NCBI GenBank assembly: GCA_045594425.1
Contig: JAZNYK010000013.1
Location: 119,244 to 143,243, forward strand
Direction: 5' to 3'
Length of the DNA: 24,000 nt
From: Clostridia bacterium
GTDB lineage: Bacteria; Bacillota; Clostridia; Christensenellales; UBA1242
Part shown: positions 2,365 to 8,300 of the stretch, piece by piece
Position numbering within the stretch: the stretch's first letter is position 1
How the letters are laid out: every line of letters starts with the position of its first letter
Program-made: the position numbers and the translations under genes
Notes under the pieces: model-generated
Databases searched by the model: none
Seen by the model: the letters and a program-made list of their open reading frames with translations, nothing else
What the model was told of the DNA's origin: nothing

Positions 2365-2393
2365 TTGAACTAGTAAAAAAATTATGTTATATT
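2365..2393 (+). promoter_or_regulatory. Extended -10 promoter directly abutting the first paralog
   Basis: TTGAAC (2365..2370), 17-nt spacer ending in TGt, TATATT (2388..2393). Only 9 nt separate the -10 from the ATG at 2403. Confidence 0.5.
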
Positions 2394-2402
2394 ATTATTA
2401 CT

Positions 2403-3401
2403 ATGATGAAAAATGTGTTGCAGTGGTATGAAGGTGTTTGTGACAGTTGGAAACAAAATGAATCACATTTTGAATCCGACACACTTGCCATGAGCAAAAT
2501 TTCGGAAGCAAATCGCAGTTATGTGACACTTGGAAACACAAGATATTTTGTTAAAACTCCACATAGCAGAAGGTTTAAATTTGGTTGTGTTAGATTGGGA
2601 AGTGCTTGCAGAGATAACTTTTTATCAACAACAAGCGAACTGGTTTCACAAAAGAAATTTAAAGAGTTAGATTTTTTCACGGCACAATATAAACCAATCA
2701 TGCGTTCAGCATTAAAAAGTGCAGTCAAAAAAAACGAACAAGGTCTTTCAGAGTCATTTGTTCTTGTTTCACCAATTTTGATATCAAATCAAAATATGCA
2801 CACAGCAACTATTCATGCATTGCAAGAGCAGGAACATTTGCTGTTTCCAGACACTCAAATGGATAGCATTATGTTTAGTGATTTGGAAACCGCTCTTGAA
2901 AATAAAGACTATTTTTTGCAGTTTATGACAGAAAATTGTTATGACGAATACATAGAATACATTTTGGCGTCAATTTTTGACTTTACAGACGATGACCATC
3001 TTGGCAACATAATTTTATGGCACCCAAAAGATAGTCATCGATTTGAACACCTTTTAGTGCACGATAAAGAGTCTACTGCATTCAACCCAATGGTTGCAGA
3101 AGGTTATTCTTATAAGGATGTAAAAAAAGGAATTTGGGAATTTTCACATTACAACGGAGTTCCAATCAAGCACAAAGATGAAAATTCAGCGGATAGGGTT
3201 ATGGAAGTTACCAGGCTTATTGCAAGCGGAAAACTCCAAAAAAAATACTGTGAATTTTTGAGCAGGATTGCTTGTCTTGACTATCAAAAATTTGCAAATG
3301 AAGTTTGCACAGAAACGGGGCTTGTTCCTAGTCAAAAACAAATTGATGTGTATCAGTTTGGTGCAGAATGCGCAGGTGAAATTGTTATAAGAGAAATGTA
3401 A
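2403..3401 (+). CDS. Hypothetical protein, paralog A; possible HipA_C-like/protein-kinase-like fold
   Basis: 332-aa ORF colinear with the next ORF. Shared blocks: WYE at the N-terminus, K..HSR, SEL[VI]SQKK, FLTAQ/FFTAQ, MTE.C[YF]D.YI.Y.LAS.F.F[TS]DD.H..NII, F.DKEST.FNP, IA.GKL.KKY.FL. D-x-H-x-x-N at 2991..3008 and a conserved Asp at 3063..3065. No SD upstream. Confidence 0.7.
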   Translation: MMKNVLQWYEGVCDSWKQNESHFESDTLAMSKISEANRSYVTLGNTRYFVKTPHSRRFKFGCVRLGSACRDNFLSTTSELVSQKKFKELDFFTAQYKPIMRSALKSAVKKNEQGLSESFVLVSPILISNQNMHTATIHALQEQEHLLFPDTQMDSIMFSDLETALENKDYFLQFMTENCYDEYIEYILASIFDFTDDDHLGNIILWHPKDSHRFEHLLVHDKESTAFNPMVAEGYSYKDVKKGIWEFSHYNGVPIKHKDENSADRVMEVTRLIASGKLQKKYCEFLSRIACLDYQKFANEVCTETGLVPSQKQIDVYQFGAECAGEIVIREM

Positions 3402-3420
3402 ATAAAAAGGGGGAAGACTT

Positions 3421-4398
3421 ATGGTAAAAGATTTTTTTAAATGGTATGAACAAAGAATTAGCGAGACCACAGTTGACCCCATTTACATTTGGAAACATGG
3501 CATGAAAGAGGCTGACCAATATCGCAGAAATGGTGGAACCATTAATATGGGCGATGATGAAACCAAATATATTTTTAAAATGAGCCACAGCAGGTATTAC
3601 AAAAACCATCGCAAAGAGTTTGCTGCACTTCCTGTAACTGCAAGAATGGCCGACAACAGATTAAGCCTTGGAAGCGAACTTATTTCACAAAAGAAATATG
3701 AAGATTTTGAGTTTTTGACAGCACAACATCATTTGGTTCAATATCATCATGAATATTATGTTATTTCACCAAACTTGCTTCAAGGTTATGTTGATTATCA
3801 AACAGCATATCAAATTAGCCAAGACGGTTATGGTGATATGCCTTTGCATAGCAAGGTTTTAAGAAAATCATCAAGACTTTCATTAAAACAAGTTTTGAAG
3901 AAAAAGAAACAATTTTTGTCTATCATGACAGAAGAATGTTTTGACCAATATATCAAATATTTGCTTGCATCGGTGTTTGAGTTTTCAGATGACGAACATT
4001 CAAACAACATCATATTTGTTCGTAATCACAAAAGTGATAAATTTGAAGCACTTTTTGTGTTTGATAAAGAATCAACTGTGTTTAATCCACTTATTGCAAA
4101 GGGTAACAAATGGGGTGAAGTAAAATATCAATCAGTTATTTATGACCACTATGTTGGAAAGTTTATTGCGTTTCCTGGAGAAAGCATTATTGAACGCACC
4201 AGAGAAATAGGCGAACTTATTGCAAAAGGCAAGTTAGAAAAAAAGTATGTTGATTTTTTAAATGCAATTGCAAACTATGACTATTGTGAAACTGCAAAGC
4301 GTGTGTATCACGAAACAGGCAAGCGTGTTAACCAAATGCAAATTGATATGTATAGAGTTGGTTCTGAATATGCCGCTCAAGCACTTGAAATGCAATAA
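3421..4398 (+). CDS. Hypothetical protein, paralog B of the preceding gene
   Basis: 325-aa ORF starting 19 nt after paralog A, with SD AAAGGGGGAAG upstream. It has the same conserved blocks. D-x-H-x-x-N at 3991..4008 and Asp at 4063..4065, with the same 19-residue N-to-D spacing as in A. Confidence 0.7.
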   Translation: MVKDFFKWYEQRISETTVDPIYIWKHGMKEADQYRRNGGTINMGDDETKYIFKMSHSRYYKNHRKEFAALPVTARMADNRLSLGSELISQKKYEDFEFLTAQHHLVQYHHEYYVISPNLLQGYVDYQTAYQISQDGYGDMPLHSKVLRKSSRLSLKQVLKKKKQFLSIMTEECFDQYIKYLLASVFEFSDDEHSNNIIFVRNHKSDKFEALFVFDKESTVFNPLIAKGNKWGEVKYQSVIYDHYVGKFIAFPGESIIERTREIGELIAKGKLEKKYVDFLNAIANYDYCETAKRVYHETGKRVNQMQIDMYRVGSEYAAQALEMQ

Positions 4399-4430
4399 AA
4401 AAAGAAGGTTTTATTACCTTCTTTTTCTTT
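4397..4430. terminator. Bidirectional intrinsic terminator between convergent genes
   Basis: A-run, then AAGAAGGT tttatt ACCTTCTT hairpin, then T-run. It overlaps the last codons of the minus-strand acyltransferase gene. Confidence 0.7.
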
Positions 4431-5202
4431 TGAGTTTTGGTGCTTTTTTGTAAGCAACTGAACATTCGTTTTTAACATAAGAATCAATCATTGAATCATA
4501 TAAATATTCAACAATTTTTTGTTTTTCATCGTTGGTGTCATTTTCAGGATTAAATGTGATTGGTTTTTCAATGTAAATAGTTTTGTTTTGTTTTGAAATA
4601 AACACTGGATAAAAACTTATGCATTTGCCAGTTTTTTGATGATAATATTTTGCAAGATGTTCAAACCCTGTTTGAAATTTTCCAACACCAGAGGTCACAT
4701 AAGATTCTTCTGGAAAAATCAAAACATTTTTGCCTTTGTTTAAAAGGGCGGTTGATTCTTGAAGGGTTTTTATGTTTGCTCTTGGGTTTTCTCTTGAAAC
4801 CGAAATTGCTTTTGCGTGTTTCATGGTGAAAACCATTAAATTTCGAAGTGCTTTAACAGCAAGTTTTTTGAACCACATTGGAAATTTTGGGAAGTTATTA
4901 TAAACCCCAGTGCTCATTTGTTCTTCAACTGATTCAGGTGTCATTATTCTGTCGATAACCCATGGTCTGAAATTGTATGGAAATCTTAAATACATAATAA
5001 CAGGTCCATAAACTTCATAGTGATTGGTCACAAAAACTTTGATGTCGTTTTTTCTAACATTTCCTTTGCCCTTTGTTTTTGCCGGCATAAGAGGTTTTAC
5101 AATTATGTATAGCCCCAAGAATTGTAGATACAAAGAAAACTGTTTCAAGCCATGACCAATGGCACCAAAAAATCTCGCAAAAATATTCTTTCTTTTGTCC
5201 AT
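4414..5202 (-). CDS. Lysophospholipid/glycerolipid acyltransferase-like protein (PlsC/LPLAT superfamily), atypical
   Basis: VTNHYEVYGP occupies the HX4D position, and LIFPEESYV resembles the FPEGTR block. N-terminal hydrophobic segment. SD AAGGGA 4 nt upstream of the ATG. The Asp of HX4D is not present (H-Y-E-V-Y-G). Confidence 0.45.
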   Translation of the reverse strand: MDKRKNIFARFFGAIGHGLKQFSLYLQFLGLYIIVKPLMPAKTKGKGNVRKNDIKVFVTNHYEVYGPVIMYLRFPYNFRPWVIDRIMTPESVEEQMSTGVYNNFPKFPMWFKKLAVKALRNLMVFTMKHAKAISVSRENPRANIKTLQESTALLNKGKNVLIFPEESYVTSGVGKFQTGFEHLAKYYHQKTGKCISFYPVFISKQNKTIYIEKPITFNPENDTNDEKQKIVEYLYDSMIDSYVKNECSVAYKKAPKLKRKRR

Positions 5203-5311: not shown

Positions 5312-8300
5312 TTAATTAAATTTTGGAGTGTCATTTTCATCGTCTGATTCAATGGCTTGAGAATCTTCTTCAACTTCCAAATCTGCAAGACCTTCATTCT
5401 TTAAAAGTTCATCAACCTTGCTTGCAATTGCTGCATCTTCACTATTGTCTTTCATAGATTCAATTGTGTTTCTTGTGTCGTAGATAGAATGTTTCTTTTC
5501 GTCTAATGGAACAATTCTATGAAGTTTTACAAGTTCGTAGACAAGCAAGATAAATCCAAATAAAGCAAGTGAACCAAAAACTAAAAGCAAAACAAATTGG
5601 TTTGTTGTAACAATTCCAAATGGAAGTGCAATTGCAAGTGTTATGGTATCAGTCTTTTTGATTTTTTGCATTTTCTTAACAATAACAATAACAACAATTT
5701 CTGCAATGATTAAAACAATAAGTAAAACAATTAACCATGTTAAGTTGAGTGTTTTGTTAATGATTTCAAATCCATCTTCAACAACCATCAAATATTCAGC
5801 GTAATTATCGTCTTCTGCACGGAAGATTCTAATATCATACTTTCCAATTTCAGTTGGAAGAAGGTGTGTCCATTCGCCATTTACAAGGTATTCAACATAA
5901 AAACCACTAATATCACTATCAACAACATATCCTTGTCTTGTGTCAATCACGGTTGATTTTGCTGGGTGCTCAATCATGATAACTTCTTTTTCTTCCCATT
6001 TAGCGTAAACAGAAATGTTTTCTGCTGGCATGGTTCCAAAAGTGTATGCTGTTGTGCAATCTTGGTCTTGATACCATCCTTCAAAAGAGTAACCTTTTTT
6101 GGTTGGTTGTGTAGGGAAGGCTACGGTTTCACCGTAGTTATATGTTTCTTCAATTGTTGATGGGGCAGTGTTTGTTACAAAAGTTATTTTGTATTGTTTG
6201 ATAACCCATTTAGCAAATGCCATTGAGTTATAGTCTGGCATGGTGCTAAACACAAATGCGTATTGATAGTCAGAAGATGTATACCAACCATCAAATTCAT
6301 AACCTTCAGCGGTTGGGTTTGCTGGTTTTTCAACAGTTTCACCATAAAGTTTTGCAATTGTGCTAATGGCTGAAGATTGTAATTTTGTATCACGTTTTGG
6401 GTTTACATCAAAGTAGATGTAATATTCTTCAAGGCTCCACACTGCATGGAGTGTGATGTCACTTGCAGGAATGGTTGTTCCAGCATAAAGTTCAGAAGAG
6501 TTTTCAGTGAGAGTCCAACCGTCAAGTTTGTGACCCTTTTTAAAGATTTGTGCATTTGTTGGAAATTCAATTTCCGTTCCAAATTGAGCAGTTTGTGAAC
6601 CAGCAGGTGTGCCTTCATGAATAAATGTGATGGTGTATGTGTTGATGTTCCATTTTGCATAGAGAGTGATACTTGTGTCGGTCATTGTTGAGAATGTGTA
6701 TGGAAGCATCAAGGTTGTATCTTTGAACCAACCACCAAATGAATAGCCTTCTTTTGTTGGGTCGGTTGGTTTTGTAATGGTTGTTCCATAAGGCTCTGAA
6801 ATTGTGCTTACAGCAGAACCACCATTTGAATTAAATGAGATTGAGTATAAAATATCTTCCCACAAAGCAACAAACTGCATATCAGTTCCAAGTTGCAATG
6901 CAAGGTCAAAATAATAATTGTTTGTGTTTGTTTTTGTTACATCATAAATATAACCAGTGAATGCTGTTAAGTTGTCAAATGTGTCAGTTGAGGTTTTAAA
7001 ACATTCTTCAATTGTGCTTGTGTCAAAGCCGTTTGCTTTAAATCTTGCAAGAGCAACTGTGTCATAATAATAAACGTTTGAACTTAAGCCATAATGAGTT
7101 TTTTGTTCATCTGAAAATTCGAGTTTTCCGAACCAACCAACAAATGTTGAATGATTTTTTGAAATATTTGTTGATGTTGGGAAGTCAATTTGTTCAGCGG
7201 TTGTGTAGTTATAGTTTGGAACAGTGTATCCATCAGCATATTCACCGCCATTTGCGATTAGTTCAATGTTAAGAATTGAGTATACCCAATATTCTTTGTT
7301 CATGATAAATTGATTGATGTGATAGAATGTGTCATTTTCTTTAAAAATGAACTTGCTGTGGTTACTGTTATTAAAGTTTGTAAGCAAACAAACGTTGTCG
7401 TATGTGTAGTCAATGCTTGCATAAATTGGATTTGCAACATCGTTTTTGAGCATTGTGCTTAAATCAATTGTTAATGATGGGTCATATTCAAACAAGAATG
7501 TTGAAGTGTGAGAGTTGGTTTCTAAAAGTTTAATGCTGTGGCTGGCATTTGTTGTAAAATTGATTGCATAACTATTAGAAACTGATGTGTTTAAATGTGC
7601 GTTTTCTAAAATTAGGTTTGCAGAATTGTCTGTGTTACTCAAGTCAACAATCACGTCAGCATTTGAAGAAATGGTTATGTTTAAGAAGTGATATGTTGAG
7701 TTGTTTGCTGAAGGGGTTAAACTTAAAACAGGAAGGTCACTTGTTGATGTGATTGAACCAGAAAGTGCAATGTTGTTAAAATCAAGTGAAATTGTTTCTT
7801 CTTCAATAAGTGTGATATTGTTAAAGTTGATTGATACTGTTGTTGGGTTGTAGATGTCTGACTTGATTGCATCAATGGCATCTTGCAAAGAAGTGATTTC
7901 GTCAATAAGTTCATAATTTAAATCATCTTCATTTGTTTGACCAATAACGCTTAACTTTGAATCGTTTTCATATGTTGAAATTGTGTAAGTGTTTGTTTTT
8001 GTTGCCCAACGTGCAGAAAGGGTTGTGATTGATTCAAAAACTTTAGTTGAAAAATCAACAGGCTCTGTTCCAGCAACTTCAAACCATCCAATAAAAACAA
8101 AGTCTTCATGTGTTGGTGTTGGAATTAGTGCAACATCAAGTTTGCCATCATCACCAGTTGTTAACTGATAATTGTCAGTGCTTCCGTTAATTTTTCCGCC
8201 AGTTGCATTAAATGTGACATTTACTGCTGCAGCGCTTGCAGTTGTGTTTGTGTTAGGTGCAAAAAAGTTTACACCTGCAACCATTAGCACGGCTAACATG

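Follow-up and report, generated by a model that had tools for sequence, protein, structure and literature searches.

To our knowledge, kinases of the HipA type are known almost only as the toxins of toxin–antitoxin (TA) modules. Here, we describe two adjacent genes, A and B, whose products appear to be remote relatives of these kinases, in a 24,000-nucleotide (nt) stretch of DNA (the window) from the Clostridia bacterium assembly GCA_045594425.1 (Christensenellales; UBA1242; contig JAZNYK010000013.1, positions 119,244–143,243, forward strand). The host is an uncultured gut Clostridia metagenome-assembled genome (MAG) of 1.28 Mb that is 98.8% complete. Hip kinases are defined by four motifs, a Gly-rich loop, an activation loop motif, a catalytic D-x-H-x-x-N, and an Mg2+-binding Asp ≈18 residues beyond its Asn, together with an adjacent, generally DNA-binding, antitoxin (PMC8262856; Gerdes, Baerentsen, Brodersen 2021). 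In HipA, the Gly-rich loop that spans residues 151–156 binds the phosphates of ATP and carries the regulatory, autophosphorylated Ser150 (PMC10627512). Set against this definition, A and B have the catalytic D-x-H-x-x-N sequence and the Mg2+-binding Asp, but they have neither the Gly-rich loop nor the adjacent antitoxin.

The top structural match of A and B is CtkA (JHP0940; PDB 3AKJ, 3AKK, and 3AKL; E 2e-5, template modeling score (TM) 0.55–0.60 normalized to CtkA), which resembles them in being a core-kinase-only protein of ≈300 amino acids (aa) without an adjacent antitoxin. However, CtkA shares 11–12% sequence identity with A and B, and it is encoded on the tfs3 integrative and conjugative element (ICE) and needs the type IV secretion system (T4SS) of that element for its effect on host cells (PMC5536186), whereas A and B lie among housekeeping genes. 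HipA (PDB 3DNV and 3TPB) and HipT (7AB5 and 8EZR) have the fold predicted for A and B (TM ≈0.5, probability 1.00), and in HipA the Lys, Glu, D-x-H-x-x-N, and Asp elements follow in the same order and spacing, with 18 residues from Asn to Asp as compared with 19 in A and B. Unlike HipA and HipT, A and B have no match to the HipA_C hidden Markov model (HMM) and no HipB, HipS, or other partner; they are inherited vertically, in the manner of housekeeping genes, and carry motifs of their own family. They differ further from HipA in that the Gly-rich loop motif, site of the autophosphorylated Ser, is not conserved and N-subdomain-1 is missing, which makes them core-kinase-only proteins, as HipT also is. 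HipG, HipI, HipJ, and HipM (clade XI) fall in the same size class (279–321 aa) and are likewise core kinases only, but they keep all four Hip motifs, the Gly-rich loop among them, and an adjacent putative antitoxin (PMC8262856), and A and B have neither the full set nor the partner. YjjJ/HipH of Escherichia coli K-12 is a Hip-type kinase that also lacks an adjacent antitoxin, yet it has an N-terminal helix-turn-helix (HTH) domain and a canonical Gly-rich loop (PMC8262856), both of which are absent from A and B.

The structure-based discovery of protein-kinase-like (PKL) families is an active field, and the A/B family is mentioned neither in the KINtaro paper (PMC10870513) nor in a preprint on PKL proteins of the oral microbiome (bioRxiv 10.64898/2026.09.18.752743). 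The fold and the chemistry considered here are already known; what is new is an unannotated family in which two of the features that define Hip kinases are missing and the pattern of inheritance is unusual.

Two diverged paralogs with a HipA-like set of catalytic residues

The two genes are as follows.

2403..3401, + strand: gene A, predicted kinase paralog, 332 aa (open reading frame (ORF) call, A ortholog clade, HipA/CtkA-fold model)
3421..4398, + strand: gene B, predicted kinase paralog, 325 aa (ORF call, B ortholog clade, HipA/CtkA-fold model)

The genes lie on the same strand with 19 nt between them, and the ORF call reproduces exactly the coordinates given in an earlier model-generated note on this DNA (hereafter the original prediction). 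A and B are paralogs: BLASTP aligns them over their full length at 33% identity (E 6e-54), far above chance, in keeping with the proposal that they are homologous throughout and yet diverged. The four elements that had drawn attention to the pair, a Lys, a Glu, a D-x-H-x-x-N sequence, and an Asp 19 residues beyond it, are all found in both proteins at the positions predicted.

2553..2579, + strand: ATP-binding Lys segment of A, K51-T-P-H-S-R-R-F-K59 (K51 aligned by profile to HipA K181)
3577..3579, + strand: Lys K53 of B, counterpart of A K51
2613..2642, + strand: D71-N72 ... S78-E79-L80 of A, in the long helix following the Lys strand, with an αC-like Glu
3676..3678, + strand: Glu E86 of B, counterpart of A E79
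2991..3008, + strand: catalytic loop of A, D197-D-H-L-G-N202 (aligned by profile to HipA D309-G-H-A-K-N314)
3991..4008, + strand: catalytic loop of B, D191-E-H-S-N-N196, a D-x-H-x-x-N motif
3063..3077, + strand: D221-K-E-S-T225 of A, D221 corresponding to HipA D332 and predicted to bind Mg
4063..4065, + strand: predicted Mg-binding Asp D215 of B, counterpart of A D221

The Lys motif reads YFVK51TPHSR in A and YIFK53MSHSR in B, and the Glu motif reads S78-E79-L-V-S-Q-K-K in A and SELISQKK in B. The distance from Asn to Asp is exactly 19 residues in each case (N202 to D221 and N196 to D215). Across 25 family members, K51, E79, D197, N202, and D221 are each conserved without exception, and H199 is conserved in 22. 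The segment following the Lys is nearly as constant (P53 and H54 in 21/25, S55 in 24/25, K59 in 25/25), as is the helix region (D71 and E79 in 25/25, N72 in 24/25, S78 in 23/25); S55 may have a role of some kind in A. The K-E-S sequence after D221 is invariant inside the A/B family, and together the K-x-P-H-S-R-x-[YF]-K motif after the Lys, D71-N72, and D-K-E-S-T-x-F-N constitute motifs that belong to this family.

When the comparison is widened to 64 superfamily sequences, including a distant clade of ≈305-aa proteins described below, no columns stay invariant except those of the Lys, a single Cys, the catalytic Asp and Asn, and the Mg-binding Asp. Conservation of the motif residues across homologs, on which the original prediction depended, is thus complete for the Lys, Asp, Asn, and Asp (64/64). 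The distant clade does not share the conserved helix Glu, and it has no counterpart of the P-H-S-R..K segment. A Gly-rich loop of the HipA type is not recognizable in the A/B family: the columns that align with the sGa..K sequence of short HipA_C proteins vary, and the β1–β2 turn has just a semiconserved [KR]-G, with the Gly present in 14/25 members.

Profile links to HipA

Direct searches with family models gave no assignment. At E ≤ 10, hmmscan of A and B against Pfam found no HipA_C (PF07804), no HipA_2 (PF20613), and no kinase family of any kind; comparisons with NCBIfam, PADLOC, and PHROGs returned no meaningful match; and the stray weak matches to DUF3536 (E 0.047) and ChbR (E 0.012) are noise. 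Scans of the whole host genome with PF07804 and PF20613 found nothing, and profile searches of the PDB sequences with 10- and 27-sequence family alignments found no kinase. One member of the distant clade has a weak PI3_PI4_kinase match (E 0.0033). That no other family would be recognizable was correctly anticipated.

A connection to HipA emerges through intermediates. We collected HipA_C members from Clostridia genomes, and these fall into three groups: long HipA proteins (DDHxKN), HipT-like proteins (DMHLKN), and proteins of ≈300 aa with a DRHxxN motif. The DRHxxN bridge proteins (L029–L036 and L039; ≈285–315 aa), which come from other Clostridia genomes, pass the Pfam HipA_C cut-off weakly (45–68 bits) and are the nearest sequence-detectable relatives of the A/B family. 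With hhalign, the A/B family aligns to the distant ≈305-aa clade at 99.7% (E 4.9e-26), the family and the distant clade together align to the DRHxxN proteins at 94.1% (E 1.3e-7) and are co-linear over 164–267 columns, and the DRHxxN proteins align to HipA sequences, including HipA of E. coli K-12, at 95.3% (E 2.1e-8). Reversed or column-shuffled controls reached at most 1.1%. Direct alignment of the A/B family to canonical HipA or HipT-like proteins is not significant (0.1–0.3%; for canonical HipA 0.3%, E 0.22).

Followed along this chain, K51 maps to HipA K181, D197 and N202 to D309 and N314, and D221 to D332. K51 also aligns with the Lys of the YmlK sequence in short HipA_C proteins and with that of HipA IIK181, and E79 falls on the Glu conserved in HipA-type kinases, the SE of the A/B motif corresponding to the iSE of short HipA_C proteins. 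The proposed HipA-like catalytic core is therefore supported, in that the chain, with its clean negative controls, places the Lys, Glu, D-x-H-x-x-N, and Asp on their HipA equivalents. As for the HipA_C relation itself, the fold and the profile chain make A and B remote relatives, but they fall below the Pfam HipA_C threshold, have no direct HMM match, and are not members of the family by that standard.

Predicted structures of A and B

The AlphaFold2 model of A, built from 10 sequences, has a mean predicted local distance difference test score of 78.5 and a predicted TM of 0.83; for B, modeled from a 64-sequence alignment, the values are 95.3 and 0.93. Foldseek searches of the PDB at E ≤ 1e-3 returned 8 matches for A and 27 for B, and all of them are PKL folds. 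For both models, CtkA from Helicobacter pylori ranks first, followed by HipA and HipT, at a probability of 1.00. The TM reaches 0.60 for CtkA and is ≈0.5 for HipA from E. coli and Shewanella; the HipT matches are to the proteins from E. coli and Legionella. Lower in the ranking are APH(3′), choline kinase, PI4KII, actin-fragmin kinase, and eukaryotic kinases, with a TM of ≈0.3 for the APH, PI4K, and eukaryotic structures.

The order of secondary structure elements fits a kinase core: a β-hairpin ending in the Lys, a long helix bearing the Glu (residues 65–88 in model A and 72–95 in model B), the D-x-H-x-x-N loop, and then two short strands that lead to the Asp. In model A, strands 203–208 and 216–219 lie between the catalytic loop and D221, as in PKL folds. 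On predicted structures, A and B accordingly belong to the PKL fold, with HipA-type structures nearest. Two independent models matching only PKL folds uphold the kinase-like fold that had been proposed, for which placement in some nonkinase fold would have been fatal. A search of a viral fold library gave generic kinases only, the best match being a phage PI3/4-kinase-like protein, and a phage origin was rejected on this result.

Predicted operon organization and the absence of a partner gene

The expression signals of the locus are listed here.

2365..2393, + strand: promoter-like site, TTGAAC, 17 nt (TG-extended), TATATT; found by consensus scan, with 9 nt between its end and the ATG that starts A
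3405..3420, + strand: spacer with the strong Shine-Dalgarno (SD) sequence of B, AAAGGGGGAAG (GGGGGA SD), identified from the sequence
4397..4428, strand not assigned: bidirectional intrinsic-terminator hairpin directly after the B stop, ending the two-gene operon

A and B appear to form a two-gene operon that is transcribed from a single conserved promoter. The promoter pattern, a TTGAA[AC] −35 element, a 17-nt spacer with TG, and a TATAAT-like −10 element 9–10 nt from the first ATG, recurs in the related loci L043, L041, L001, and L012 and before the remnant of A in L040. No SD sequence is present between the promoter-like site and the start of A, and strong SD sequences precede every downstream kinase copy in L041, L001, and L040. 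Gene A, which comes first, is thus probably translated from a transcript with little or no leader; the conserved promoter-to-ATG spacing without an SD sequence supports a leaderless start but does not prove it. The terminator hairpin is common to the kinase operon (+ strand) and a convergent acyltransferase gene (4414..5202, − strand); just 16 nt separate the B stop from the end of the acyltransferase ORF.

In L001, the public start of copy 1 (L001:7974-8972) at position 8001, giving 323 aa, is probably 27 nt too far downstream. An ATG at 7974 is likelier, given the distance to the promoter that is conserved elsewhere and the shared N terminus MI-x-[DN]-[LM]-F-x-W-Y.

No adjacent small, HTH, or antitoxin gene is found at the window locus, where the opposite strand carries both flanking genes, NUDIX and acyltransferase, and no ORF lies in the 110-nt spacer upstream of A. 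The syntenic loci of other genomes have no antitoxin-type partner gene either. The absence of a HipB-like HTH partner, noted at the outset, thus holds at this locus. In the single-copy subclade of L013 and L014, and only there, another gene lies downstream of the kinase gene, within 14 nt of it in L013 (L013:7007-8095) and overlapping it in L014 (L014:5486-6664). Its product of 362–392 aa combines domains of sigma-70 region 2/4 and HTH_23 and might be a DNA-binding partner peculiar to this subclade. Neither A nor B has a transmembrane segment or signal peptide (maximum KD19 0.93 and 0.75, respectively).

A fixed genomic slot with variable copy number

The kinase genes occupy a syntenic slot in which the gene order is ArsP_2, SDR, NUDIX, kinases, acyltransferase, Flg_new surface protein, and transketolase. 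Its kinase content differs among relatives.

A and B: the window, L043, L041, and L042
A, X, and B (three copies): L001–L004
A-like copy only: L012
B only: L040

In L040 (GCA_965320595.1, contig CBDNVY010000005.1, 6830–6880), the promoter of A and a 16-codon stub of A, MLQNVLKWYNEHKSAV-stop, precede B; A has therefore been deleted in that lineage. The SDR, NUDIX, and acyltransferase genes are absent from the L012 slot, and further single-copy members of the family sit in unrelated contexts. Because B-only, A-like-only, and three-copy loci exist, neither paralog is an obligate partner or antidote of the other, and an obligate A–B pair, or one paralog serving as antitoxin, is ruled out.

In a maximum-likelihood tree, A and B fall into separate clades with support of 100/98 and 99/98, respectively, each with genes of other species, and the duplication is for this reason old, as had been suggested. 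That it was kept as a pair holds only in part, as relatives have one to three copies in the same slot, and the idea of an obligate two-paralog module does not survive the neighborhood survey. Relative to L043 (dS ≈0.39), A has a dN/dS of 0.055 and B one of 0.029, as compared with 0.053 for both the flanking acyltransferase and the SDR gene; at the level of their neighbors, both copies are therefore maintained like housekeeping genes. Inheritance is vertical in this one housekeeping slot across species only 44–64% identical. The conserved neighborhood, which includes genes for a diacylglycerol (DAG) kinase, an LtaS-like sulfatase, the acyltransferase, and a surface protein, contains no mobile-element, secretion-system, or ICE genes.

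Probable stand-alone kinases and the competing explanations

We interpret A and B as two active, stand-alone kinases of the HipA/CtkA superfamily that have diverged in their targets, are co-transcribed, and probably act on cellular proteins, and we give this interpretation a probability of about 0.6. In the mechanism that we envisage, ATP-Mg would be held in A by K51 of the strand, E79 of the helix, N202 of the loop, and the Mg-binding D221, and in B by the counterparts K53, E86, N196, and D215. The Asp of the same loop, D197 in A and D191 in B, would serve as the catalytic base, with the γ-phosphate transferred most likely to Ser or Thr of one or a few cellular proteins rather than to a small molecule. 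Because there is no antitoxin, the slot is fixed and vertically inherited, and purifying selection equals that on the neighbors, we infer that A and B are stand-alone regulatory or growth-modulating kinases, neither a classic HipBA-type TA module nor an obligate A–B complex.

Several observations weigh against this interpretation. A direct HMM match to HipA_C or any kinase family is absent, and the connection to HipA depends on the intermediate DRHxxN family plus predicted structures. All characterized HipA-family kinases are growth-inhibiting toxins. PI4KII, APH(3′), and choline kinase are among the weaker fold matches, and several neighboring genes (DAG kinase, LtaS-like sulfatase, acyltransferase, and surface protein) have lipid or envelope functions.

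A TA or defense module, in which one or two growth-arresting HipA-like toxins would be restrained by the sister paralog, an unrecognized partner, autophosphorylation, or proteolysis, is unlikely but deserves real weight. The close structural relatives HipA and HipT are TA toxins, and E. coli YjjJ/HipH, although partnerless and monocistronic, can inhibit growth (PMC8262856). Copy number in the slot varies while the flanks stay constant, and the family is very patchy (1/201 genomes of the order), which recalls accessory or defense genes; the unequal translation signals of A, without an SD sequence, and B, with a strong one, also count in favor of such a module. Against such a module, the locus has no adjacent small or HTH gene and no PADLOC match. 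Every catalytic residue is kept in both paralogs, so neither resembles a dedicated inhibitor, and the loci with B alone (L040, A deleted) or an A-like copy alone (L012) show that neither copy is an obligate antidote. Vertical inheritance in one slot across species 44–64% identical, with no mobile-element genes nearby, and dN/dS equal to that of housekeeping neighbors also speak against it, and the toxin-type option of the original prediction loses ground on the same account of housekeeping-like, vertical inheritance.

A more specific form of the stand-alone kinase interpretation, which we offer tentatively and regard as rather unlikely as a whole, is that the HipA-fold kinases of this host, A, B, and a third paralog, are resident Ser/Thr signaling kinases. 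They would constitute a domesticated, antitoxin-free branch that tunes translation or growth reversibly, with tandem duplication diversifying the targets. The host genome (98.8% complete) has no match to Hanks-type kinases (Pkinase, PF00069) or to PP2C_2; Pkinase is present in 53/81 genomes of the order and was not found in two same-family genomes sampled. The idea that A and B took over from a lost PrkC is weakened by those two genomes without Pkinase and by seven same-family genomes in which searches found no A/B family.

It is doubtful that A and B are small-molecule or lipid kinases, of the PI3/4-kinase-like or APH-like kind, that act on an envelope lipid, a sugar, or a metabolite. Besides the weaker fold matches and the neighbors named above, the PI3_PI4_kinase match in the distant clade (E 0.0033), the phage PI3/4-kinase-like protein as best viral fold match, and the missing protein-kinase-type Gly-rich loop of HipA are compatible with such a role. 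The only high-TM matches (0.5–0.6), however, are protein Ser/Thr kinases, as compared with ≈0.3 for APH and PI4K. The neighboring genes belong to separate transcription units read from the opposite strand, three of them (SDR, NUDIX, and acyltransferase) are missing in L012, and single-copy members occur in unrelated contexts.

Secreted, host-directed effector kinases like CtkA of H. pylori are very improbable. In favor of such a role, both models match CtkA best and the MAG is that of a gut commensal. Against it, A and B have no signal peptide or transmembrane segment, their neighborhood has no secretion-system or ICE genes, whereas CtkA itself, carried on the tfs3 ICE, depends on the T4SS of that element (PMC5536186), the host genome is 1.28 Mb, and identity to CtkA is 11–12%. 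Noncatalytic pseudokinases or scaffolds, for which the absent Gly-rich loop motif might argue, are barely credible given that 64/64 sequences keep the Lys, the catalytic Asp, the Asn, and the Mg-binding Asp, the opposite of the pseudokinase pattern.

The stand-alone kinases thus envisaged form a sequence-orphan branch of the HipA fold that has kept its catalytic machinery, has no antitoxin or Gly-rich regulatory loop, and, in a genome of very small size, is constrained as strongly as housekeeping genes are. Should the proteins prove active, the HipA fold would have known uses other than that of persistence toxins, at least 100 "hypothetical protein" clusters of uncultured Clostridia would gain an annotation, and there would be a simple system for studying how a HipA-type kinase is controlled when it has no antidote. 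The advance is incremental, as the fold and the chemistry are known.

Distribution of the family and a third paralog

The A/B family is rare. Among 5.8 billion proteins, 8 clusters were found for A and 10 for B, and a set of 1.84 billion proteins yielded 22 representatives at E ≤ 1e-10. A search with the 10-sequence alignment identified five loci among 185,579 species genomes, all in uncultured Clostridia or Firmicutes MAGs, and the one positive genome among the 201 of the order is that of the host.

The host also encodes a third, distant paralog of 307 aa (G000:C13:22336-23259; L007:1144-2067), which lies ≈100 kb away, outside the window, and has the motif DYDRHVKN. Its clade, with proteins of ≈305 aa, comprises at least 99 clusters, all unnamed or "hypothetical," and has neither the PHSR..K insert nor the helix Glu. 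In a sample of 399 Clostridia genomes, this clade was found in the host genome only. The gene for the third paralog is apparently monocistronic and adjoins a tRNA-gene-like sequence.

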